DNA of 38,846 nt from an uncultured Bacilli bacterium (GCA_947632375.1 CANRPF010000013.1:1-38846), one strand, 5' to 3'. Numbered from the stretch's first letter, positions 2,179-22,417 are shown. The notes: generated from the letters alone by a model not told the origin. A program made the numbers and translations.

Positions 2179-3355
2179 TTAAAAATAATATTTGCACGAG
2201 TCTACTATCTCATAATCTGTGATAAATAATTGTGCTGTGATGTTGCCATTCCATTCATTTTTATTCGCTTCGCCAACACAATCAATTACAACATAACCTT
2301 GATTATTTTCTTGAAGTTTTTTACAATCTAAATCCGTTGCATTAAATAACATTAAACTTACTTTATTAGGTAATGTAATTTTAATTGTATTAGATGTTTT
2401 TCTATAAATAGTTACCATATCTGCGGTAACTTTTAAATTTTTAATAGCTAAAATAGGAGTCTCCATATCTTTTCCCCAAAAACTATCCATCTCTGCTATA
2501 TCAAGAATATTTTGTGGATTAACATTATTACCATCATATATATAATCTACATAGTATATTGCTTCATCAGACATATTTTTTAATGCTTCATTTGTAGATT
2601 GAATAAATGCGGGAATGTCTTGTTCGCGGAGAGCGAGCCCAAAGGCGCCTGGGTGCCCGGCCACATACATCGTTAACCCAGTCCCCGCGCATATATCTTT
2701 AAATTCAGTAACACCAACCTTATCACAGCCCCGCGCAGAGCCTTGATAGGATACTATTGTAGGTGTGTCTATTAAAACAACTTCATCGTCTTTATTTAAA
2801 AATTTAAGTGGCTTAGTTTCTTCTACTTTTGTTAAAATGCAACATGGCCGCTGATATTTAGCCATGAAACGATTTGCAATTAACCCTGCGACATTTTTAT
2901 TAACCTGCCCTGGTTCTACTAAGATAAGAAGAACTTTATTATTAAGTAAATGTTCTTCTTTTATTTTATTTTCAAGAAAAACCATACTTTCATCTTGAAT
3001 TTTATTTTGTTTATTCTTGACATTAATACATATTCTTATAGCTTGTTCAACTAATTGTTCCATTTCTCCTTGTTTATGTCCTCTTTTGGTTGATGGAATT
3101 TGTTGAAAAGCTTTAAAAAAAAGCATTGATTCAAATACTTTTTCTTTTTCCTCTTGATTTCCACTTCTAACTATTGCATTAACAAAAGGAGCAATGTAAA
3201 AAGCTGCTCCCCAGGACGTTATATGATCACCTAATTTAAATTGATTCTTTTGCCACATATTATAAATAAAAGGATTATGAATATTATCTGGTTCAAAACC
3301 TTTATTTATTAAATGCTTTGTTTCAAAAGATAGCAATGACTGCATATCCGCCGTT
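2179..3355 (-). CDS. recJ: RecJ-like DHH-family nuclease, exon 2 (DHHA1 domain)
   Basis: The supplied 438-aa ORF reads, from residue 48 onward, TADMQSLLSFETKHLINKGF... This aligns with the RecJ block TIADVVPLTGENRILVKYGL. The DHHA1 GGGH-like motif YVAGHPGAFG is present. The first 47 codons of the supplied ORF are the intron 3' region, not exon. Confidence 0.75.
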
Positions 3356-7297: not shown

Positions 7298-7626
7298 CCT
7301 TAATACTCTTACTTTCATAAGAGAGTAGACTATATCTTTACCATAGAATACATTATATTCCTTAGGTACCCAGTACTTCCACATAATGTGTACTCCCCGC
7401 TACAGGATAGTCGTTGAACCTTCTTCTATTCGAAGCTCGGCTGCATGGTTGCCCATATTATCTATATAATTTTTAAAACATTCACACTTAGGTTTGTTTC
7501 ATCCTTATGTTGTAGTTTATATAGCTTTAGGGTTTTCCAGCAATTCTCTGGGTAATAATCACTTAGTATTTCTACTAAGGACGACTGTTTCTAAAGTTTT
7601 AATAAATTTTAAAACCTTGTCCAATC
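7298..7626 (-). ncRNA. ORF-less group I intron in dnaB; boundaries plus or minus a few nt
   Basis: The minus-strand RNA contains a P2 hairpin CUUAGUA-GAAA-UACUAAG and a Q-like element AGAGAAUUGCUGGAAAACCC (compare Tetrahymena AAUUGCGGGAAAGG). It also has an R-like element caacGACUAuccu, an S element AAAGAUAUAGUC identical to the Tetrahymena S core, and a P9 CUCUUAU-GAAA-GUAAGAG. It is highly similar to the phoH intron (about 90 nt near-identical). Confidence 0.75.
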
Positions 7627-9957
7627 AGCAATAGCTTTTGCACCTCTCAATAGATTCTGATCATATCTTTGCGCAGTTCTAAATTCTGCATTTAATTGAG
7701 TTGCTGTTAAAATAAATATCCCATATTGATTACATAAATCTTTTAATCTAGTTGAAATCATAAATAATATATTATCTTCCCGCAATCCTTTTACTTTTGC
7801 TTTTGAAGATATTTCACTAAGAATTTTCATACTACTATGAATATAATCAAATCCTACATACTTAATATTAAAATCTCTAACGCCTCTTTTAATAGTATTT
7901 TCTATATCCTGCAATGAAAAATCTGGTAATTCTTCTATATAAATAGGACATTTTTTTAATAAATTAGCCGCGTATATTACTCTATTCAATTCATCTCCAT
8001 AGTAAGTATTATAAATAATATGCTCTTCATTAACATTTGCAAGAAAAGCCATCATCATTGTTTGTACTTCATCTAATTCTTGTTCTGTTGTAATAAATAA
8101 AGATGGCTCTTTAGTGCCATTTTTTATCCATTTGCCTTGAGTTAAATCGTATATCTCATCACATGCAATATTACATACATCCGCGATCATAGAACGAGTA
8201 TTATGTGTTACTATATAATCATTCATTAAAAATAAATGCTCTTCATTATCAACATAAAAACAGGTCATTTCTTCTGAATAATTTAATTTTTCTATTTTTA
8301 CAATAGGATTAAATAAATTTAATTCTTTTTTCTTTCCATTATTAAACCAAGATAATATTAAATCATGTTTTCTCTTCAATCTAAATAATTTTATTTTATT
8401 TTGAGGACTACCAATTATTTCTATCTTATAAAGAGGAAGAGAATCTTTATGATTATCTTCTAACCATGAAGCTTTAAAACCTAAACTTAAACATAATTCT
8501 ATTATATTATCTCTTAATTGTGGGCTTACAGTATAATAACTTATTCTACCTTTTTTTGAATCTATTGATCCATCAGTATCTAATAATCCATTTAATAAAT
8601 CTAATCTTTGTTCAACGCTACCTTCAAGATATTGTTTTGGAATAAATTTATCTTCAGATTTACACTGCATTAATTCAGGATATTCTTTAAGAGCTTCTTC
8701 TACCCAAACATTTATATGAGTATTACAATTAGGATCTTCAAAATTCCAATTATAATTAAATTTACTCGTTTTTTTACAAATCCAATTCATTTCATTAGCA
8801 AGAGCAGTTGGTAGTTCTTCATTTTTACTACTGAAAGATAGTGCTTTATTGCTCTTAGAATATCTAAAACTTCCATCTCCCAATAATAATCCCATGGTAT
8901 AGGGAGTTAAATAAAAATTCTTTTTAGAATACTGTACAGGTTGCTGCATAGGAATTAAAATTTGATAACCATGTCCATTTTTATATAATGGCATATTATT
9001 AATTTCTTTTAAAGTTTTTGTATTAAATTTTCTGGATAATTTAGATTCTTTTTTTTGTCCTTCAGTACAAAAACTCCATAAATGTTCATCACAACATTTT
9101 GCTTTTCTACCATCTTTAAAAGATATTTCCCATACTTCTTTTTCTCCTTGAGGATAAACAGCTTTAACTTTAGTTGGTTTCCCAAAAGCATCAAAAAGAT
9201 AATCTCCCACCTTAATATCTTCAACTTTCCGTTGCCCTTGAGGAGTTGGAAGAATAGTTGAATTAGGCAATGCTTTTCCTACTCCTGTTGAAGCTGATCT
9301 AAGATAAAATTTCTTTAAGCGGGCGCCGCGTGTAATTGTATTAATAATAGGTCCATAAAGCGGATAGCCTATTTCAGGAGTTGTTTGAAGGCGTTTTATT
9401 AGCTCTAAGGCACCGTCACCTGCGTTTACTAATATATTTTCTTTATTATCAACACAATTTAATCTTATATCTAAAATTTTTTGATCAATTATATCGGCAA
9501 TATCTTCAATAGAATGATTGTCGAGCCAATCTTCTTGAGCCTGTTTCTTTTTTATATCTAATATATTATCTATATCATATAACCAAGAAAGATCCATTCC
9601 TAAATCTTGATAAGCTCTTAATAATGTCATTTTTTTCATTCTATTGTAATAATAATCAAAAGCAGCTAATTGAGTAGTCTCACTTATTTTTTGAAGATAT
9701 TCCGCGCCTTTATATGTTTTATATACAGCTAATTTTTTTGGTCGTTGTGCTAAATAATCTTCTATTGCGGTGATATTTATTTTAATAGCTCCAAGAGCAT
9801 GAAGATTATAAATTGAACCAAATAAGATTCTATGAAATTCTTCAGGAAAATCTTCTTCTCTAAAATTGTATTTATCTTCTATATCTAATAAAGATGGATT
9901 GTTATAAATACCACCTATTACCTGAATAATTGCTGCCGTATCTACATATTTACCCAT
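7627..9957 (-). CDS. dnaB: DnaB-like replicative helicase, exon 1, including an in-frame intein (8200-9273)
   Basis: The N-terminus has DnaB features. The Walker A sequence is interrupted: ...LRSASTGVGK | intein | TRSMIADVCNIA. Removing the intein restores GVGKT. The H4-like region is ...LRGAKAIA. Confidence 0.8.
8200..9273 (-). mobile_element. intein (358 aa) with a LAGLIDADG homing-endonuclease domain, inserted in the DnaB P-loop
   Basis: It begins at Ala229 (ALPNSTIL...) and ends ...YIVTHN, with +1 Thr. Two LAGLIDADG motifs are present, LLGDGSF and LLDTDGSI. Excision gives a 424-aa DnaB with an intact GxxGxGKT. Confidence 0.8.
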
Positions 9958-10537: not shown

Positions 10538-10542
10538 ATTAA

Positions 10543-10562
10543 GGCGCGGTATATACCGCGCC
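10543..10562 (-). terminator. rho-independent terminator after the AAA_24 ATPase gene
   Basis: Perfect palindromic hairpin GGCGCGGTATATACCGCGCC, followed by a U-rich stretch on the minus strand. Confidence 0.5.
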
Positions 10563-10566
10563 TATT

Positions 10567-11208
10567 TTATTTAAGCCATTCTTTTAATTCAGTATTAATC
10601 ATTTGAATCATTTCTACTTGATCTCTTGTGCATTGATTAATTTTTTTACCTTTACCTAAGTATTTTTCTATAATATGAGTAATCTTAGGACTATAATCTT
10701 GTTCAAATTCTTCTTTATCAATAGTTTCAATAAGGTTGTTAATCATTGAATTAAATTCATTTATTAATTTATCAAAATCTAATTCTTCTGCTTTTGTTAT
10801 AACATTTTTTTCTGTTGTGATATAATCTTCGCCATGTACTTCTGCTTCTTTATCAATAGCGATATTTAAAGCTTCTACAAGAGCATCATAAGATGAATGA
10901 ATTTCAGATGGAATATATTTTAGGCGGCCGCCGCATCTTACTGAACCATCTAAACTTCTTAAAGTAATAACAACCTCATTTTTACCATCTTTAAAAACTG
11001 GATGCAAGTATCCATAAATATCAACCATATTTTCTACAATACTATTATAACTAGTCGATACACTTGGATAAATTTGTGTAAATTCTGTACCATCTTGTCT
11101 TTTAAAAGTTCCCTCTTTGGAATGAGAAATAAATACAATAGCATAACCTAACTGTGCTATTGCTTGAAAGACATCTTCAAATTCTTTCTTTAAAGCTGAC
11201 CATCCTCC
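10567..11208 (-). CDS. Sak4/AAA_24-like phage ATPase, exon 3
   Basis: GGWSALKKEFEDVFQAIAQLGYAIVFISHSKE... shows an ISH sensor typical of RecA-like AAA_24 proteins. The supplied ORF's TTG 'M' is the last intron codon. The 3' splice site follows G at 11209. Confidence 0.65.
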   Translation of the reverse strand, partial: GGWSALKKEFEDVFQAIAQLGYAIVFISHSKEGTFKRQDGTEFTQIYPSVSTSYNSIVENMVDIYGYLHPVFKDGKNEVVITLRSLDGSVRCGGRLKYIPSEIHSSYDALVEALNIAIDKEAEVHGEDYITTEKNVITKAEELDFDKLINEFNSMINNLIETIDKEEFEQDYSPKITHIIEKYLGKGKKINQCTRDQVEMIQMINTELKEWLK

Positions 11209-12326
11209 CAATTATGTTATCGTAAAGGTTTTTTATCCTTTACTTCTTACATTTACTTATTCATGTAAGTTCAGCATATCTTTTAATCTTATTGCTCTGA
11301 AATAAGATCCGAAGCCTCGTGGGAACTATATTTCAATAATAATTCAGTATAATGCAAATATTTTCTTTGCATTCTAAGAGCTTTTGTAGAAGGTAATTTA
11401 TAAAATAATTTATATAATTTTAATCCATTTTCATAATTATAAAAATAAAGTCTATATATTTGTAAATTTACTATTGAAGATTTTTTAGTTATTTTAGAAT
11501 GAATATCATATTCTTTTAACACTTTTTGAATATGTTCTAAAGTTGCTAAAGAAGTTGAATCTATTTGCCAAGAAATCGTTCCATTGCTCCATTTAATAGA
11601 TCCGTCGCCATCAAAAAAACCTCTTATAAAATCAATATAATATTTTGGTTCGATATTTCGTAAAAAATCTAAATTATAATTTGTTTTGTTTGGTATTATA
11701 TTATATAAACTAAGGTCTTTTTTTATTTGCATTGAAAAGAAATATAGTTTACTATTTTTAGTACCTTTACTATGATTTTCATAATCTTTTACAGGTCTTT
11801 CATTTTGAATTTCACTGTTTATTTTCTCTAAGATTTCCTTATCTTGTCTTTGTAATTCTATATATATTTGATTTTGACTTTTTGCTACGCACCCATCAGA
11901 TGCCAACATCCCTAAAATATATGCAGAATTATGAGACTGATTATGAATATCAAAATAGTTATCATTTATTTTATAAGTTCTATTGCTTAATTTGGAATTA
12001 TTAAAGTTACTTGTACGTCTAATTTCAATATTATTTTCTTGTAAAACTCTAACTATGACTTTATCCGTATGATTATATCTTTTAGCTATTTTTTTTCTAG
12101 GCTCTCCATTTTTATAACTTTCACAAATATCCTTTATTTCTTCTTTTGAAAAATTTACTCGTTTAGCCATACCGGTCAAACTCCTTCTATATTATTGTTT
12201 AATGTTCCTATGCGTTGCGCGTGTTATAACTTTTAAATTATAACTTCCGCTCTGATTAGCATTTCAGCCTTCCAGTTTTTGCTTCGTTTTCACTAATATA
12301 TCACTATACTAGGCGGCAGAGATCCT
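11209..12326 (-). mobile_element. group I-type intron 2 of the ATPase gene, carrying a LAGLIDADG HEG
   Basis: Exon 2 ends ...EVPYG with ggU. The intron 5' core (12200-12300) is homologous to the intron 1 5' core (13610-13700). The exon 2 + exon 3 frame is restored. R/S core elements were not confidently identified. Confidence 0.6.
11289..12179 (-). CDS. LAGLIDADG homing endonuclease with an N-terminal HTH (intron-encoded)
   Basis: Motifs AYILGMLASDGCV and IRGFFDGDGSI. The likely true start is MAKRVNF, with RBS GGAG upstream. Confidence 0.8.
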   Translation of the reverse strand: MTGMAKRVNFSKEEIKDICESYKNGEPRKKIAKRYNHTDKVIVRVLQENNIEIRRTSNFNNSKLSNRTYKINDNYFDIHNQSHNSAYILGMLASDGCVAKSQNQIYIELQRQDKEILEKINSEIQNERPVKDYENHSKGTKNSKLYFFSMQIKKDLSLYNIIPNKTNYNLDFLRNIEPKYYIDFIRGFFDGDGSIKWSNGTISWQIDSTSLATLEHIQKVLKEYDIHSKITKKSSIVNLQIYRLYFYNYENGLKLYKLFYKLPSTKALRMQRKYLHYTELLLKYSSHEASDLISEQ

Positions 12327-12592
12327 ACCGTATGGAACTTCACCAAGAGCATTTACTCCTTTTTGTGAACAAATATATTTTTCACACATTGTAGCAGCTC
12401 TATCAACTGTATCAATTACTATTGTAGAAAATTTTTCTTTTACTCCCTCTTTAGCTAATTCTCTAACTACTTGTTTAATATCTGACCATTTTGTAATATC
12501 TTGGGCAAATACACCAGGTAGTGCATTGTACCCTCTTTCAGTTGCTAATAAAAGAGGGTTTGGAAACTGCGATGCTAAAGTCGACTTCCCTG
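12327..12592 (-). CDS. Sak4/AAA_24-like phage ATPase, exon 2
   Basis: (S)GKSTLASQFPNPLLLATERGYNAL...STIVIDTVD carries the Walker A GKST and Walker B IVID. The upstream part of the supplied 135-aa ORF is intron. Confidence 0.7.
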
Positions 12593-13730
12593 CTTTTGGC
12601 ATTATCTTATTAATTAGGTTTTTTATCCTAATTCTGGAGGTTTCCCTCATCATTATATTCGGAAAGTTTAGGAATATAACTACAATCAGTCTTTTCTGAT
12701 TCAGATGAGCATACATTTTCTACCTTCTTTTTAAAGGTAGCCTTGGCTCGTGGGTCTAATTTTTCTATTCTATAAGAACAAAAATCTAAAAATTTATCTT
12801 TCTTTCTCTGTAAACATGGACTATCACTCATGAAAGAATAGAACCGATTTAATATCACATAGCTTCCAATAGTAGAGATTTCTAATGAATATAAATTATT
12901 CCCAGATGGTTTTAAATTACAATAAATACCAACATGACAATTATATTCGGATTCAATTAATTTTTTAAATTCTTCTAAAATTCCTTTTTTATAAGAACAA
13001 ATTTTAAATGTTCCTTGTAAAGTATTTTTATTCCAAGAAAAAGAACCATCGCCATCAAAATACCCTTTTAAAAAGTACCATTTAAGATTATTATCTGGAA
13101 TATTTTTCATTGTTATTCCAATATAAGTTTTATCTGGAATAATAGAATACTTTTTTAAATCTTCTTTTATTTGTTTAGAATTAAATCTATAACTAGAAAT
13201 AGCATACCCCTTATTATTTATTGTAGATGAAATCTTATGAGCAGATTTCAACTTTTTTTTAAATTCTTCTAGCCATTTAATATCAATAGAAGCTAAAGCA
13301 ATTTTAATTTCATTATCTTTTTTTCTAACAGTTCCATCTGCTGCTAAAAAACCTAAATAATAAGTATTCTCATTATTTAATTGACTGAAATATCCATGAT
13401 CAATAGCAAAGCCTCTGCTTTGATTTGTAATAATTAATTGCTCACGTCTATTGCGGATATGGATATGTTCATTATTTAAAATTTTTTTTATATCATCTAT
13501 GTGAATATTATAATCTTTTGAGCATTGAGTTAAAGATTTACCATTTTTATAATCTTCAATCAATAGGTTGTTCATAAATAAAACAAGCACTCCTTTTTAA
13601 ATTTTCTTATAGTTTCAGACCGATGCGTTGCGCGTGGCGCGACTTTTAAATCGCGCCTTCCGCTCGTATTAGCATTTTAAAGCCTTTACGGTTTTCCAAG
13701 GTAGTTCACAGTTACATTACTGCAACTGGG
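12593..13730 (-). mobile_element. group I-type intron 1 of the ATPase gene, carrying a LAGLIDADG HEG
   Basis: The 5' splice site follows U of ...caagugggU. The 3' splice site follows G of ccaaaaG. The junction gives GPQVGS|GKST, a perfect Walker A. Confidence 0.65.
12628..13590 (-). CDS. LAGLIDADG homing endonuclease with an N-terminal HTH (intron-encoded)
   Basis: Motifs LGFLAADGTV and LKGYFDGDGSF. The probable ATG is at MNNLL (around 13575), with RBS AAAGGAG. Confidence 0.8.
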   Translation of the reverse strand: MLVLFMNNLLIEDYKNGKSLTQCSKDYNIHIDDIKKILNNEHIHIRNRREQLIITNQSRGFAIDHGYFSQLNNENTYYLGFLAADGTVRKKDNEIKIALASIDIKWLEEFKKKLKSAHKISSTINNKGYAISSYRFNSKQIKEDLKKYSIIPDKTYIGITMKNIPDNNLKWYFLKGYFDGDGSFSWNKNTLQGTFKICSYKKGILEEFKKLIESEYNCHVGIYCNLKPSGNNLYSLEISTIGSYVILNRFYSFMSDSPCLQRKKDKFLDFCSYRIEKLDPRAKATFKKKVENVCSSESEKTDCSYIPKLSEYNDEGNLQN

Positions 13731-13818
13731 ACCCCACTTGAGGTCCGTATATATACGTAAAATATCCAGTCAAATCTCTTGATACCTTGTGGGGTTGAAG
13801 ATTTAATAAATCAATCAT
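13731..13818 (-). CDS. Sak4/AAA_24-like phage ATPase, exon 1 (29 codons + 1 nt)
   Basis: A strong RBS AGAGGAGG sits 7 nt before the ATG. The exon reads MIDLLNLQPHKVSRDLTGYFTYIYGPQVG(S), which is the AAA_24 N-terminal kilIyGppGsG pattern. It lies immediately after the upstream gene's stop. Confidence 0.65.
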
Positions 13819-13841
13819 TTATATCCTCCTCTATATCTCGA

Positions 13842-14801
13842 TTAAAAATTAAAAGTCCCATTAGTTACTGAATTTGTTACAAAAGAAGAAACATCACTCT
13901 TCGCTATTGAAGCTTGTGGTGCCGCAGCTTTATTTGCACGATATTCATCGCTTCTTTTCTTAACATCTGCAAGATATACTTCACGATTCTGCATTGCAGT
14001 TGTTAAATCTTTTCTTTCTTCTTCTCCAAACTCATAAGGAGTTCTTGCTGCTTGTGTAATCACCCATTCTTTTGTTGTCCTGGTTGAATTTGTAACTATA
14101 GCTTCTCCAAACGCGGTTTCCTCTGTGCGCGGAATTACAATAGTAGAACAAACAACATTACCCCAAATCTTAGTATATACTGGATTATTAGGACTTACAC
14201 CAAGACTTTCAAAATAACTAATGCCTGCGGGATTCTTAACTACAAAATCAAAAGGAAGAACATCATTTCTAAAATTAAAAATAGCTCCTTTCACAGAAAG
14301 ATAACCATCTTTGATACCTCTCTCTTCATCTGCCTCAATATTTATTACATTAGTAATAACAATATCAGCAATAAAAGTATTTCTATCAGATTCATTATCT
14401 TTTAAATCTGAAACCAGAGAAACAAATCCGCCCTCATTTGTTTTTGCAGATACAAGTGTATTATCCTGAGTATAAAAATCATTTAATGCCATTGCTACTC
14501 CATCAACACTTACTTTTGTAGCTTCATCTTTTCCAGATGTTACCCAGGACTTTCCTTCATCAATAATTTTCTTTAACGCGGTAAAAGTATTATTTCTTCC
14601 GCCTTTCTTTGTAGTTTCTGTTACATATGTGAAATGAACTGGCAATACATTAAGACCATTTTCATCTGTTGCGATTTCAAGATTTCCTGAAATAAATTCT
14701 TTTCCAAAATTTTCTGATTTTTGATTTTGTACTGTTTTAATTGCTAAATTATGTTGATAAATTCTACCTTCTATATGTTGAGTATTAATTGCTTTGCGCA
14801 T
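13842..14801 (-). CDS. hypothetical protein, possibly an ssDNA-binding or recombination-associated protein given its position beside the AAA_24 ATPase
   Basis: Complete 319-aa ORF with RBS AAAGGAG. It ends ...NGTFNF. No motif recognised, so the function call is contextual only. Confidence 0.25.
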   Translation of the reverse strand: MRKAINTQHIEGRIYQHNLAIKTVQNQKSENFGKEFISGNLEIATDENGLNVLPVHFTYVTETTKKGGRNNTFTALKKIIDEGKSWVTSGKDEATKVSVDGVAMALNDFYTQDNTLVSAKTNEGGFVSLVSDLKDNESDRNTFIADIVITNVINIEADEERGIKDGYLSVKGAIFNFRNDVLPFDFVVKNPAGISYFESLGVSPNNPVYTKIWGNVVCSTIVIPRTEETAFGEAIVTNSTRTTKEWVITQAARTPYEFGEEERKDLTTAMQNREVYLADVKKRSDEYRANKAAAPQASIAKSDVSSFVTNSVTNGTFNF

Positions 14802-14997: not shown

Positions 14998-15522
14998 TTA
15001 TTGAATTATTTTTTTCTTTTTTACTTTTTTATTTATTTTTTTAAAATTTTTAATTTTTTTATTGCTATCTTTATATTTCCATTGAAAATCACCAGAGTAT
15101 TTGCGTTCTCCTCTGCAACAAGCACAAATGCCACTATGAGAAATTCCAGTAACTTGACTAGCTTGATTTGCACTTGGATAAGATGTTATATAAATTTCAT
15201 TTAATTCATACTGTTCAACTTCTTTTCCTTTTGCTAATCCAGTTCCATTGCTACCTCCTGGTACCATATTATATCCGTTTGGAATTAAAGTATTTTTTTC
15301 TTTTATCCAAAAATTTTCTCTTTCATCTAATTTTTCTACTTTACATTCTTCGATAATTTCAAAAGAAAAATTTTTTATGCCATATTTTCTTATAGCTCTA
15401 TGTATATAAAAATCATCTTTTGCACTTTTATGTTTAGAAAAACGATGTTCAATTTCAATACTTTGACCAATATAACATTTTCCATTTAGTAGATTCTCAA
15501 TTTTATAAATTCCACAAGACAT
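14998..15522 (-). CDS. freestanding GIY-YIG homing endonuclease
   Basis: Reads MSCGIYKIENLLNGKCYIGQSIEIEHRFSKHK...ENFWIKEKN...GYNMVPGG, followed by a C-terminal basic DNA-binding tail. Confidence 0.8.
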   Translation of the reverse strand: MSCGIYKIENLLNGKCYIGQSIEIEHRFSKHKSAKDDFYIHRAIRKYGIKNFSFEIIEECKVEKLDERENFWIKEKNTLIPNGYNMVPGGSNGTGLAKGKEVEQYELNEIYITSYPSANQASQVTGISHSGICACCRGERKYSGDFQWKYKDSNKKIKNFKKINKKVKKKKIIQ

Positions 15523-16958: not shown

Positions 16959-17909
16959 TTAATTATTCCCTTTAGTTGCATTATAACCTATGATATTAGA
17001 TTGATAGATTTCAATCCATCTTTTTTCTTCTGCATCTAATCTTTCTCTAGGACATTCTTCTAACAATTCAAAACTAAAGTTCCATACACCATCTTTTTGC
17101 ATTGTATTATATAATCTATTAGTCGCGGGAGCGTCAATCCCCAGCCCGCATTTAATATGTTGTTTCATACGATCTTGGACATTAACACTTTGTCCTACAT
17201 AGCATTGCTTTGTTTTTAAATTTGTTATTTTATAAATTCCACAAATTTGTTTATTTCCAAATATACGATTACACATTTCTGTAGTTTGTTTTTGAAAATA
17301 AGTAGACCAAATTAATTTACTTAATATTATTGGATTATGTAACATTAATTTAATTGAATTAAGTTTTTCTATATCTTCTAAATCAATAGCAGAAACAGAT
17401 AATTTATAAAAATCCAACCTTTCTTCTTTTTCTCGTTCGCGGAGCTGCGCCTTAGTGGCGGCATTAATTTGATCTATTATAGTTTTATATTGAGTCTCCG
17501 CGCTCTTTATATCTTCTACAACTTTCTTTTGTTTTATGTGTAACTCATTTATTCTTTCTTTATAGTCAATTTCAGCTTCATCATACGCATCCTCAATTTG
17601 TTCAAAATATTTAGCACTAGCATAGTCTGCATTCTGTTGAAATATTTTTAATTGTTCAGATATTTTATTTTTTTCTTTTTCACATATGTTATCAATTTTT
17701 TGTTTTTCATTTTCTAAAATTTTATCTAATTCAATTTTATCTTTATGAAGTTGATTAATTTCATTTTGTAATTTATTTTTTAAATTGGTTTGTATTTGAT
17801 TTTTTTCAACTGTAATATGATTAGCTTTATTTATAAGATAAAGACCTAAACTAATTAAAAAGCATCCAATAATAATACTTATTGTAATTAAAACTTGTAC
17901 AATTCCCAT
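16959..17909 (-). CDS. membrane-anchored coiled-coil protein with a C-terminal GIY-YIG nuclease domain
   Basis: N-terminal TM helix VLITISIIIGCFLISLGLYLI. This is followed by about 170 aa of heptad-rich coiled coil. The C-terminal domain carries ICGIYKITNLKTKQCYVGQSVNVQDRMKQHI...RWIEIY. Confidence 0.65.
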   Translation of the reverse strand: MGIVQVLITISIIIGCFLISLGLYLINKANHITVEKNQIQTNLKNKLQNEINQLHKDKIELDKILENEKQKIDNICEKEKNKISEQLKIFQQNADYASAKYFEQIEDAYDEAEIDYKERINELHIKQKKVVEDIKSAETQYKTIIDQINAATKAQLREREKEERLDFYKLSVSAIDLEDIEKLNSIKLMLHNPIILSKLIWSTYFQKQTTEMCNRIFGNKQICGIYKITNLKTKQCYVGQSVNVQDRMKQHIKCGLGIDAPATNRLYNTMQKDGVWNFSFELLEECPRERLDAEEKRWIEIYQSNIIGYNATKGNN

Positions 17910-20017: not shown

Positions 20018-22417
20018 TTATAACTTAACTACTGACATTACTTTACTATTTTTAATTGCCATATTTCCTATACTAATTCTACTTAATAAAGGAATTTCCT
20101 TAGCTTCAATACAAATTGAATTAGGCTGACCAACTATTAGGAAATTATCTGTATCATCAACCATTGCCGCGCCAATTATATCTCCAATTATAGAAGTTTG
20201 TTTATACGCGGTGATGCCCTTACCCGCGCGCAACTGGAACGGAAATTCGTCAAGTCTACATTTCTTTATATAACCATTTTTAGTAACAAAAGCAACATAA
20301 TCAGTTACTTTATGAATTGGTAAACCAATTAAAACTTCATCATCATCAGTTAGTTTAATTGATTTAACACCTGCGGTTACCCGCCCTATGGGAGCTATGT
20401 CCTCGGTCGGGAAGTGAATGACCAAGCCCCGCCGCGTTATTACAAGCACTTCCTCTTCATTCATAAAAGTTACATTTGCTATTGTGTCATTTTCTTTTAG
20501 TTTTATTGCGGCGATGCCTGTAGTCTTTTTAATTTTACTATACTCTTCAAGTTTAGTCTTTTTAATTAATCCTTTTTTAGTAAAGAATACTACATATTTA
20601 GCTACACTATCTCTATATAATGAAGTTATTGCAATAACTTTTTCATCTGGTTCAATGTTAATAAGAGTGTTTACATTTACTCCTTTTGATATATTAGTTC
20701 CAATAGGAATACTATCTACCAATAATTTAAACATTCTACCTTTTGAAGTAAATAGCATTAAATTATCGACTGTATTAGTAGATATTGTTTCTAATACCGC
20801 ATCATCTATACTTTTAATTCCTTTTCCATTCCTTCGTTGTATTTTAAAACTCTTTTTGGGAATTCTTTTAATATCACCATTTTGTGTTAGAATAACAATA
20901 ACATCTTCTGGAACTACTTCTTCTATCTCTTTTTCTTCTTTTGGAACTTCGATATTAAGAAGCTTAGTTCTTCTTGCGTCTCCATATCTATCTCTTAACT
21001 TAGTGATTTTTTCAATGAGAATCATATCTCTATATGATTCCTTAGTTAAAATTTCATTGCACTTAATAATAATCTTTTCTTTTGCTTCTAGTTCTTTAAG
21101 AAGATCATCTTTGTTAAGTTTCGTTAATCGAGCGAGTTTCATGTCAAGAATTGCGTCAGCTTGAGTGTCTGTAATACCAAAGCGCGCAACTAACTTTTCT
21201 TTAGCTTCTTCTCTTGTATATGACTCTTTAATTAATATAATAGCAGTATCAATATCTTTAATAGCAACTAAAAGACCTTCAAGCACATGTTTACGTCTCT
21301 CCGCTTTATTTTTATCAAAAGTAGCTGTATTGATAAGTACATTAGTTTGATGAATATAATATGCTTTAATTAAATCCAACAGAGAACAAAGCTTAGGAGT
21401 ACCGTTGACAATAAAATTCATATTGTATGATACTGTTGTTTGTAAATCAGTTAAAGCAAATAACTTATTAACTGCTTTCTCTGGGTTTACATCTTTCTTA
21501 ATATAAAAAACTAACTTATTTTTACCTACACCAGATTCATCATCAAAATCTTCAATATATTCATTTAATTTATCTGCATTAATGCCAATTTGCTTTTTTA
21601 TTTTATTTCTATACGTTCTATATGGGATAGAAGTAAAAGTAACTTTTTGTCCATCTACCTTATAATCTCCACGTACCTTTAATGAAATATTTGTTTTACC
21701 AGTGCGAAAAGCTTCTTTTATATCTTTTGCATTAATAATTACATTGCCAAGCGGAAAGTCTGGCCCCTTAATATACTCCATTATCTCATCGAGCGAGATG
21801 TTATGATTTTTAATAAAAGCTATAATTCCATTGCATACCTCAGTTAGATTATGACTTGGGCTAGAATGGGACATTGAAACACCAATAGCTTGACGACCAT
21901 TACATAATGCATTAGGGAATAGTCCAGGAAGAAATACAGGCTCTTGAAACTCGCCATTATAAGTTTCTTTAGCTGGAACAACATTCTTATCATAGTCTAT
22001 CATCATTAAGTCAGTATAGATTGATGGCTTTGTTTCAGTATACCTGCTACTAGCCCATACATTATTCGCTTCTTGTGTTCCTAATGAACCTTGTCCATCA
22101 ACAAGTGGATACCGCATTAAAAACGCCTGAGACATCTTACATAGTACGCCATAACAGGCTTGATCGCCGTGAAAGTAGCTGGTCATTAGGGTACTTCCTA
22201 TTACGGCATTACTTTTTTTAGTCTTGCTCTTTGAGTTCATCTTAAGATAATCTTCCATTGTCCATAAAATTTTTCTTTGAGAACTCAATAATCCATCTTC
22301 CGCGGAGGGTATAGCTCTATCAGTCAAGACCTCTTCCGCGAAAGTTAAGAAACATTCTTTACTTTCATCAAGAATATCTATATTTGTTATATTGCTCATA
22401 ATACCCTCCTTAGTCAA
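20018..22417 (-). CDS. type II DNA topoisomerase subunit A (GyrA/ParC/T4 gp52-like)
   Basis: RAIPSAEDGLLSSQRKILW aligns with RALPDVRDGLKPVHRRVLY. The active-site region is WASSRYTE (compare AMRYTE). The C-terminal repeat domain is present. Confidence 0.8.
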   Translation of the reverse strand: MTKEGIMSNITNIDILDESKECFLTFAEEVLTDRAIPSAEDGLLSSQRKILWTMEDYLKMNSKSKTKKSNAVIGSTLMTSYFHGDQACYGVLCKMSQAFLMRYPLVDGQGSLGTQEANNVWASSRYTETKPSIYTDLMMIDYDKNVVPAKETYNGEFQEPVFLPGLFPNALCNGRQAIGVSMSHSSPSHNLTEVCNGIIAFIKNHNISLDEIMEYIKGPDFPLGNVIINAKDIKEAFRTGKTNISLKVRGDYKVDGQKVTFTSIPYRTYRNKIKKQIGINADKLNEYIEDFDDESGVGKNKLVFYIKKDVNPEKAVNKLFALTDLQTTVSYNMNFIVNGTPKLCSLLDLIKAYYIHQTNVLINTATFDKNKAERRKHVLEGLLVAIKDIDTAIILIKESYTREEAKEKLVARFGITDTQADAILDMKLARLTKLNKDDLLKELEAKEKIIIKCNEILTKESYRDMILIEKITKLRDRYGDARRTKLLNIEVPKEEKEIEEVVPEDVIVILTQNGDIKRIPKKSFKIQRRNGKGIKSIDDAVLETISTNTVDNLMLFTSKGRMFKLLVDSIPIGTNISKGVNVNTLINIEPDEKVIAITSLYRDSVAKYVVFFTKKGLIKKTKLEEYSKIKKTTGIAAIKLKENDTIANVTFMNEEEVLVITRRGLVIHFPTEDIAPIGRVTAGVKSIKLTDDDEVLIGLPIHKVTDYVAFVTKNGYIKKCRLDEFPFQLRAGKGITAYKQTSIIGDIIGAAMVDDTDNFLIVGQPNSICIEAKEIPLLSRISIGNMAIKNSKVMSVVKL

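Follow-up and report, generated by a model that had tools for sequence, protein, structure and literature searches.

Group I introns that carry homing endonucleases have long been known from the DNA-metabolism genes of phages, as has the presence of several introns in one gene. The introns of orf142 in Staphylococcus phage Twort (AF132670.1, the comparison sequence used here) belong to subgroup IA2, and their self-splicing has reportedly been shown experimentally, in work attributed to Landthaler & Shub 1999 and Golden et al. 2005. In PMC11878797, the mobile group I introns of Bastillevirinae and further phages of Bacillota are described as mostly IA-like, as having a ribozyme interrupted by a homing-endonuclease loop, and as lying in DNA-metabolism genes of large phages; the same paper reports that the ribozyme signature of some introns escapes covariance models, and describes IA2 as heterogeneous. 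We analyzed a stretch of 38,846 nucleotides (nt) from an uncultured Bacilli bacterium (GCA_947632375.1, CANRPF010000013.1:1-38846), called the window below, in which a Sak4-like ATPase gene on the minus strand appears to be interrupted twice by elements of this kind. With a probability of about 92%, we regard the region from 13818 to 10567 as a single phage Sak4-like AAA_24 (phrog_124) gene for a RecA-fold ATPase, in three exons separated by two related mobile group I introns of one lineage, each with an open reading frame (ORF) for a double-motif LAGLIDADG protein. This reading is carried by the continuity of the exons, by intron boundaries seen against intron-less and one-intron relatives, by an RNA structure backed by covariation, and by the identity of the intron ORFs.

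All ORFs of the gene and its introns lie on the minus strand. The gene opens at ATG 13818, directly after the stop codon of an upstream 319-residue ORF (13842-14801). A ribosome-binding site, AGGAGG (13830-13825), can be read in the sequence 6 nt before this ATG, which opens the short frame MIDLLNLQPHKVSRDLTGYFTYIYGPQVGSQLQ, closed by a stop codon. Exon 1 (13741-13818) has 26 codons (MIDLLNLQPHKVSRDLTGYFTYIYGP). A second frame, ...PKAGKSTLASQ...GEVPYGRISAA and stop, runs to 12309 and holds exon 2 (12327-12599; 91 codons, PKAGKST...GEVPYG), with the GK[ST] part of Walker A and a Walker B motif, TIVIDTVD. A third frame continues from GGWSALKKEF... to the stop codon at 10567; ORF reading and alignment to homologues set exon 3 at 10567-11208 (213 codons plus stop, GGWSALKKEF...KEWLK). 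The 330-residue joined product matches Pfam family AAA_24 (PF13479, cut-off 27 bits) at 135.2 bits in one stretch, residues 22-196 against profile positions 6-179, and matches the Sak4-like family phrog_124 with an E-value of 3.7e-51. The canonical Walker A motif GxxxxGK[ST], here GPPKAGKST, arises only after splicing at the sites given below. Two uninterrupted metagenome homologues of 330-331 residues (YIYGPPKAGKST), P0001 at 82% identity and P0002 at 79-80%, align to this product without gaps and read YIYGPPKAGKS/TT and VPYGGGW at the two junction sites. Compared with such intact homologues, the exons contain no frameshift and no internal stop. Megablast of the whole region against GenBank phages returned no match, nor did PDB sequence searches with the spliced ATPase and the intron-2 endonuclease. 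As a Sak4-like protein, the product may act in single-strand annealing.

A first-pass annotation of the window had already proposed one Sak4/AAA_24 gene in three exons with two homologous endonuclease-bearing introns, and this was borne out, the AAA_24 match extending in one stretch across both junctions. Its strong ribosome-binding site for exon 1, right after the upstream stop, is the AGGAGG described above. End-to-end alignment of the spliced product had been named beforehand as the point on which the proposal could fail; in the 331-residue version then proposed, residues 2-328 aligned in one tblastn piece. The tblastn matches of the spliced product are uninterrupted genes for a 'Sak4-like ssDNA annealing protein' in Enterococcus, Staphylococcus and Lactobacillus phages, and yorG of Bacillus SPbeta-type phages. 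Also correct was the expectation that annotation pipelines would fragment the region: the public calls on this contig are a 214-residue exon-3 ORF, a 97-residue exon-2 ORF and two endonucleases, with exon 1 uncalled. The 97-residue fragment corresponds to AAA_24 profile positions 11-90 and the 214-residue fragment to positions 102-180; called separately, the fragments score 71.9 and 42.6 bits.

We place junction 1 after U13741 and after G12600, giving YGP^PKAGKST (the caret marks a splice site), while junction 2 joins 12327 to 11208, giving PYG^GGW. As modeled, the spliced messenger RNA (mRNA) reads ...TATATACGGACCT^CCAAAAGCAGGGAAG... at the first junction and ...CCATACGGT^GGAGGATGGTCAG... at the second. 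The minus strand at the first 5' splice site reads ...TAC GGA CCU^CAAGUGGGGUCCC..., and the P1 helix of intron 1 pairs GGACCU (13746-13741) with GGGUCC (13734-13729), so that U13741, the last base of exon 1, lies opposite G13734 as the U.G wobble of P1. A P1 helix spanning 13746-13740 and 13735-13729 is recovered in the free-energy fold of this intron. In intron 2, P1 is CGGU/GCCG, with U12327 opposite G12317, and unconstrained minimum-free-energy folds contain the U.G pair of P1 at both proposed sites. At its 3' end the tail of intron 1, ...AAUAAGAUAAUG, finishes on G12600 and is followed by CCA AAA GCA GGG AAG UCG; each intron thus passes from a terminal G into its 3' exon, as G12600^CCAAAAGC and G11209^GGAGGATGG. 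The same intron-end G is found in the related loci L125, L128 and L124 and in 24 other family members. Around junction 2 the RNA reads UAC GGU^...AAUUG^GGA GGA UGG, and the join is gap-free against homologues, as is the join of exon 1 against intron-less homologues. Because intron 1 and exon 2 both start with C, shifting both intron 1 sites by one base would yield an identical mRNA; 13741/12600 was chosen over the shifted pair because of the rule that a U precedes the intron and a G ends it.

Homologous genes display a precise presence/absence polymorphism for these introns, at the identical nucleotide. The gene of locus L127 (GCA_947625635.1), which lies between YorF-like and YorH-like genes and is accompanied by DnaB, has neither intron: it reads TATGGTCCG CCAAAAGCTGGG at the intron-1 site (GGTCCG^CCAAAAGC) and TACGGC GGAGGCTGG at the intron-2 site. 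Loci L125 and L128/L129 carry only an orthologue of intron 1, with its LAGLIDADG ORF, at exactly GGACCT^...G^CCAAAA; intron 2 is absent from them and the same codon is continuous. This is the pattern that mobile introns produce.

Intron 1 (12600-13740, 1141 nt) and intron 2 (11209-12326, 1118 nt) share one layout. P1 is followed by P2 (8 base pairs, with a GUAA or GUGA loop of the GNRA type), P3, J3/4 AAAA, P4, J4/5 AA, P5, and P6 (GCG...CGC) enclosing P6a. J6/7 AAC then leads to the P7 5' strand GCAU[A] and to P7.1, which encloses a small P7.2 whose loop holds the ORF. After it come CACGAG, P3', P8, J8/7 AAAAGAU, P7' UAUGC, UGAAC, P9, P9.1 with the loop GAUAAAAAAC, a tail and the terminal G. 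P4 is CGUA/UACG in intron 1 and CUGG/UCAG in intron 2, and P7.1 is GGUCU/AGACC and GGAAC/GUUCC, respectively. P3 spans about 0.95 kilobases, pairing CCUUGG (13701-13696) with CCAAGG (12746-12741) in intron 1 and CGAAGC (12286-12281) with GCUUCG (11315-11310) in intron 2. The P9 domain is expanded in intron 1 and its orthologues, where a stem closes three hairpins, GAGG-GAAA-CCUC among them; P9 of intron 2 is just one hairpin.

The shared 5' core that the first-pass annotation had noticed is matched by the pattern GCGGAAG-N(10-30)-ACGCGCAACGCAT, found in the window only at 12210-12250 and 13623-13663, with 0.00 matches expected by chance. Two domain covariance models were built from the family, R2 for the 5' domain and R1 for the 3' domain. 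R2 matches the window only at 13614-13702 and 12201-12288. The former, in intron 1, scores 70.6 bits (E-value 1.4e-16) from outside the seed and runs from the P3 5' strand through J3/4, P4, P5, P6, P6a and J6/7 to the P7 5' strand (GCAU, 13626-13623) and the P7.1 5' strand. The latter, in intron 2, scores 97.5 bits as a seed member and spans the same elements from P3 to the P7 5' strand (GCAUA, 12213-12209). The 3' domain of intron 1 (12600-12764), recovered in the fold and by R1 at 45.3 bits (E-value 2.5e-7, outside the seed), consists of P7.1', CACGAG, P3', P8, J8/7, P7' (AUGC, 12712-12709), the multi-helix P9, P9.1 and the terminal G12600. That of intron 2 (11209-11333), also seen in the fold, scores 112.8 bits with R1 as a seed member and consists of P7.1', CACGAG, P3', P8, J8/7, P7' (UAUGC, 11278-11274), UGAAC, P9, P9.1 and the tail GAUAACAUAAUUG.

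The helices are supported by compensatory change. Between the two window introns, P3, P6a (GGCGCGA against GUUAUAA), P7.1, P8 and P9.1 are fully compensated. From 28 ORF-deleted family cores RNAalifold recovered, unaided, P2, P3, P5, P6, P6a, P7.1 and P8, with compensatory changes in 27 of 32 pairs. Adding P4 and P7 brings the share of paired cells to 91.1%; controls in which the 3' partners were displaced by 1-3 columns reach 33-45%. In the full structure 29 of the 41 pairs are changed on both sides and none of 500 shuffles reaches the observed values; the 3' halves were picked by 6/6 P3 complementarity, so the counts for P3 are inflated, while the other helices played no part in the selection. 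P7.1 covaries in all four of its pairs, and P7.2 appears in the folds of both window introns. P6 and P7 are nearly invariant and give little evidence either way, the one compensated change in P7 being that of L124. For single-sequence folding, GAAA stood in for the ORF loop and 12-14 nt of the 5' exon were kept; the resulting minimum-free-energy structures recover P1 through P9.1 in both window introns, with z-scores of -4.97 and -8.26. The P9.1 loop GAUAAAAARC (window 11226-11239 and 12616-12629, minus strand) is nearly invariant in almost all 28 members on a stem that covaries freely, which suggests a tertiary contact.

In the Michel & Westhof classification, extra helices P7.1/P7.2 between P7 and P3' mark subgroup IA, and both window introns have them, in an IA2-like arrangement. 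By eye and without a score, the joining segments J3/4 AAAA(A), J4/5 AA, J6/7-P7 GCAAC-G, with a G-C pair opening P7 at the guanosine site, and J8/7 AAGAUAU match group I signatures in Twort and in the consensus of the Rfam group I model, RF00028. The scored link is with Twort: R1 finds orf142 introns 2 and 3 at 25.2 and 23.5 bits, in register over P8, J8/7, P7', P9 and P9.1 and ending exactly on the 3' splice-site G, with roughly calibrated E-values of 0.003 and 0.0067.

Several observations weigh against the group I reading, in addition to the selection on P3. The E-values just given lie near the range where the shortened calibration may err about five-fold. R2 reaches only 11.8 bits on Twort (E-value about 1), and a sequence-only nhmmer profile of the family only an E-value of about 0.2, its two best alignments falling at the 5' ends of introns 2 and 3. 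P7, usually GACUA/UAGUC, is GCAUA/UAUGC here. In P1 of intron 2 the exon side contributes only four pairs, and no convincing P10 pairing was found for either intron. The search with a group I covariance model that the first-pass annotation had suggested found nothing: RF00028 has no match on the window at its gathering score, on 11100-13850 at E-values up to 10, on 11 family loci, or on the ORF-less copy L083 at E-values up to 10. Finally, splicing itself is something we infer from the sequence. As a positive control, RF00028 was run on the three Twort introns and scored them at 63.6-100.9 bits, so its silence here is read as a limit of sensitivity and not as evidence against introns. We conclude that both introns belong to group I, in a divergent IA-like lineage; the grounds are architecture, the rules for splice sites, covariation and a scored, if modest, similarity to Twort, rather than a curated model.

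Each intron carries in its P7.2 loop an ORF for a predicted LAGLIDADG homing endonuclease, both publicly called. The ORF of intron 1 (12628-13575, 315 residues from ATG 13575) matches PF14528 with an E-value of 1.6e-12 and phrog_4645, annotated as 'endonuclease', with 5e-36; that of intron 2 (11289-12170, 293 residues from ATG 12170, the P7.2 stem being CAAUAA/UUAUUG) does so with 2.3e-18 and 2.7e-41. The longest frames are 320 residues (13590-12628) and 296 residues (12179-11289), and Shine-Dalgarno sites set the starts given. As had been claimed, both proteins are of the double-motif type, with two PF14528 stretches apiece, YYLGFLAADG and LKGYFDGDGS in one and YILGMLASDG and IRGFFDGDGS in the other; they are paralogues, 35% identical (E-value 1e-25). 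The claim that the ORFs end within about 35-80 nt of the 3' splice sites was not confirmed, the distances being 28 nt in intron 1 and 80 nt in intron 2. The last 45 or so codons of the intron 1 ORF overlap P7.1', P3', P8, P7' and the P9 domain, and its stop lies in the 5' strand of P9.1; the stop codon of the intron 2 ORF lies within P8. About 140 nt double as coding sequence and ribozyme core (12628-12770 and 11289-11335, minus strand). The length of the coding tail that enters the 3' domain varies among orthologues, with 288 residues in L125, 315 here and 320 in L128.

Within the same architecture, the first-pass annotation had spliced intron 1 after U13731 and after G12593, which gives GPQVGS^GKST (GGGGT^CAGGGAAG), a first exon of 29 codons and a frame of 331. 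We consider these sites very improbable, and correct the exon to 26 codons, by P1 and by gap-free homologue alignment, and the product to 330 residues. Both of the earlier sites obey the rule of U before and G at the end, and their product aligns end to end in tblastn and scores 128.3 bits against AAA_24; however, this score is 6.9 bits lower than that of the revised join, the P-loop acquires one extra residue relative to all five reference Sak4 proteins, and the close homologues at 79-82% identity read GPPKAGKS/TT instead. The RNA also argues for the revised sites. U13731 belongs to the 3' (guide) strand of P1, where it pairs with A13744, and is not the end of an exon strand; no GCCCC-like guide sequence is available for GGGGU; and the orthologous introns of L125, L128 and L124 all end ...G^CCAAAA. 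Other joins compliant with the U/G rule were tried, combining an exon-1 U after GGACCT, CAAGT, GGGGT, CAGT or CAGTT with the intron-end Gs. Only the first-pass join and GGACCT^CCAAAAG keep the frame and GK[ST], and among all those listed only GGACCT^CCAAAAG fits P1 and the homologues. The second junction had been placed correctly, as EVPYG^GGWSAL with the intron at 12326-11209, gap-free against homologues.

It might also be supposed that the insertions do not splice at all, and that endonuclease cassettes have broken the gene, leaving a pseudogene or pieces that are expressed separately and then assemble. Some phage genes divided by free-standing endonucleases do work as assembled fragments, the public calls are separate ORFs, an in-frame ATG (MPKAGKST) could open exon 2 and a TTG exon 3, and no standard group I model matches. 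Against this, the sequences flanking the ORFs adopt a ribozyme-like fold that is conserved and covaries extensively, which would be purposeless without splicing, and their 3' domains show a modest scored similarity to the proven ribozymes of Twort. The boundaries are exact to the nucleotide when compared with intron-less alleles and obey the U.G and terminal-G rules; exon 1 alone would be a 33-residue peptide with half a P-loop; and the exons are 79-82% identical to intact homologues with the frame preserved throughout. A broken gene is very improbable. That the LAGLIDADG domains belong to inteins, with splicing at the protein level, is suggested only by the neighboring DnaB gene (7609-9957), which has an in-frame, intein-like LAGLIDADG insert, and we give the idea practically no weight. 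For the window introns it is already refuted by the stop codons: the exon 1 frame stops 7 codons into intron 1 (GPQVGSQLQ and stop) and the exon 2 frame 5 codons into intron 2 (GRISAA and stop). In addition, the endonuclease ORFs have their own ribosome-binding sites, structured non-coding RNA precedes each, and the Pfam search found no match to a Hint/intein splicing domain.

If the two-intron gene follows standard group I chemistry, transcription of the minus strand would yield a precursor in which translation from exon 1 stops 7 codons into intron 1, and each intron RNA would fold as a subgroup IA-like ribozyme. An exogenous guanosine bound in P7 would attack after U13741 in intron 1 and after U12327 in intron 2, and the freed 3'-OH of the exon would then attack after the terminal G12600 or G11209, producing a ligated mRNA of 330 codons. 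Only this spliced mRNA would encode the canonical Walker A (GPPKAGKST) and PYGGGW. The LAGLIDADG enzymes would be translated from their own Shine-Dalgarno sites within the P7.2 loops and, by homing, would cut intron-less alleles such as that of L127 in a co-infecting phage, with repair from the intron-bearing copy spreading the intron. Both catalysis and homing are presumed.

The shared-core pattern recovers relatives of these introns in IMG/VR, including complete ORF-less copies of about 250 nt (L053, L083, L117, L042). Among the matches listed, the lineage's introns lie in Sak4-like AAA_24 genes at L027, L028, L049, L051, L053, L064, L067, L080, L082, L090, L098, L102, L123, L124, L029 and L041, and 22 of the 28 family introns whose ends could be resolved have a 3' exon that matches the Sak4 profile, a proportion that is indicative only. 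They occupy at least seven profile sites: 28 (GP^PK, the site of intron 1), 29-30 (K^xGK), 31, 67, 93-98 (DTV^D), 119 (YG^xGW, the site of intron 2) and 174. L053 and L049 each have two such introns in one gene, the two sites in L053 differing from those in the window. An unannotated human-gut 'Bacteriophage sp.', MT835481.1, contains at 21547-21783 an ORF-less copy of the family intron that covers 91% of ORF-deleted intron 2 at 72.7% identity. Three Staphylococcus phages, S-CoN_Ph8, Ph7 and Ph2 (OR354831.1, OR354830.1, OR354825.1), have a Sak4-like gene in two adjacent pieces annotated as two coding sequences; because the span of about 1013 nt leaves no room for an intron, this split looks like a frameshift and not an element.

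It is conceivable, if rather doubtful, that these introns make up a distinct group I lineage unrecognized by Rfam (P7 GCAUA/UAUGC, an invariant P6 GCGGAAG...CACGCGC and an invariant P9.1 loop GAUAAAAARC), specialized on Sak4-like genes, as the 22 of 28 resolved members and the seven or more codon positions might indicate, traveling with one LAGLIDADG family in an association that is more than selfish. Were that so, the endonucleases might act against rival phages in a co-infection by cutting their recombinase gene, a form of interference competition; alternatively, splicing dependent on guanosine triphosphate might gate production of the recombinase.

Other features of the neighborhood can be noted. 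Three nt past the stop codon of the ATPase gene, a terminator-like hairpin (10542-10563, minus strand; nine pairs, seven of them G-C) is followed by a T-rich tail, identified by consensus match only. The DnaB-like helicase ORF at 7609-9957 (minus strand) has 782 residues, against 506-511 in L125 and L127, and matches LAGLIDADG_3, LAGLIDADG_2 and Hom_end at residues 355-517 or so, between the DnaB N- and C-terminal domains; the most likely identity of the insert is an intein that contains a homing endonuclease domain. An ORF of 174 residues for a GIY-YIG plus NUMOD1 homing endonuclease (14998-15522, minus strand), lying between the YorF-like gene and a winged-helix ORF, appears to be free-standing, and a 316-residue ORF at 16959-17909 (minus strand) has a C-terminal GIY-YIG domain, so that the region is dense in selfish nucleases. 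R1 also has a weak match at 2183-2284 (plus strand, opposite to the genes; 16.9 bits, E-value 0.14) over a CACGAG-like string, probably by chance.

A full-text search of the open-access literature turned up no description of introns in Sak4-like genes; the kind of mechanism is itself known, and the understanding of how such elements work is unchanged. In the corrected gene model the Sak4-like ATPase is complete again and its P-loop intact, and the exon that the public calls miss is included. Sak4, which serves recombination as a core gene in large low-GC phages, joins the intron-rich phage genes, alongside those for DNA polymerase, ribonucleotide reductase, terminase and thymidylate synthase, as a frequent landing site for one intron-endonuclease lineage, and its sites, at least seven in number, form a natural series in which the movement of an intron and its endonuclease to other positions within one gene can be followed. 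Surveys of phage introns that rely on RF00028 will undercount the lineage, even its ORF-less copies; the family alignments and the two small covariance models would find more of them.

Among described genes, SPbeta yorG and the 'Sak4-like ssDNA annealing protein' of Enterococcus phage VRE9_4 can be aligned to 99% of the spliced product, at 30-37% identity, and the gene order YorF-Sak4-YorH-DnaB is common to the window and to uninterrupted Sak4-like/YorG genes. Those two genes are continuous, whereas the window gene needs two splicings to obtain its Walker A and PYGGGW. Among phage introns, those of T4 td, nrdB and nrdD (sunY) are likewise of subgroup IA2, have homing endonuclease ORFs in loops that project from peripheral helices, and interrupt DNA-metabolism genes where these encode conserved catalytic regions. 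The T4 endonucleases, unlike those of the window, are of the GIY-YIG or HNH type and placed in other loops, in the P6 or P9 regions, and to our knowledge the window introns have no detectable sequence similarity to these T4 introns. The host genes mentioned in the passages of PMC11878797 considered here are those for DNA polymerase, ribonucleotide reductase and terminase, and its endonucleases are mostly HNH, whereas the window combines Sak4 with LAGLIDADG; the word 'recombinase' is absent from PMC11878797. With Twort orf142 the window gene shares the placement of several introns in one phage gene. In both sets of introns P2 forms a hairpin whose loop is of the GNRA type, additional helices lie between P7 and P3', and the elements follow the same order; the two sets share J6/7-P7 GCAAC-G, J8/7 AAGAUAU, UGAAC after P7', P9, P9.1 and a tail AACAUAAUUG that ends at the splice site. 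They differ in the sequences of P7 and P4-P6 and in host gene, a tail-related orf142 against Sak4. The window introns hold LAGLIDADG ORFs in P7.2, whereas the Twort introns, at about 225-290 nt by their RF00028 spans, are too short for such an ORF.

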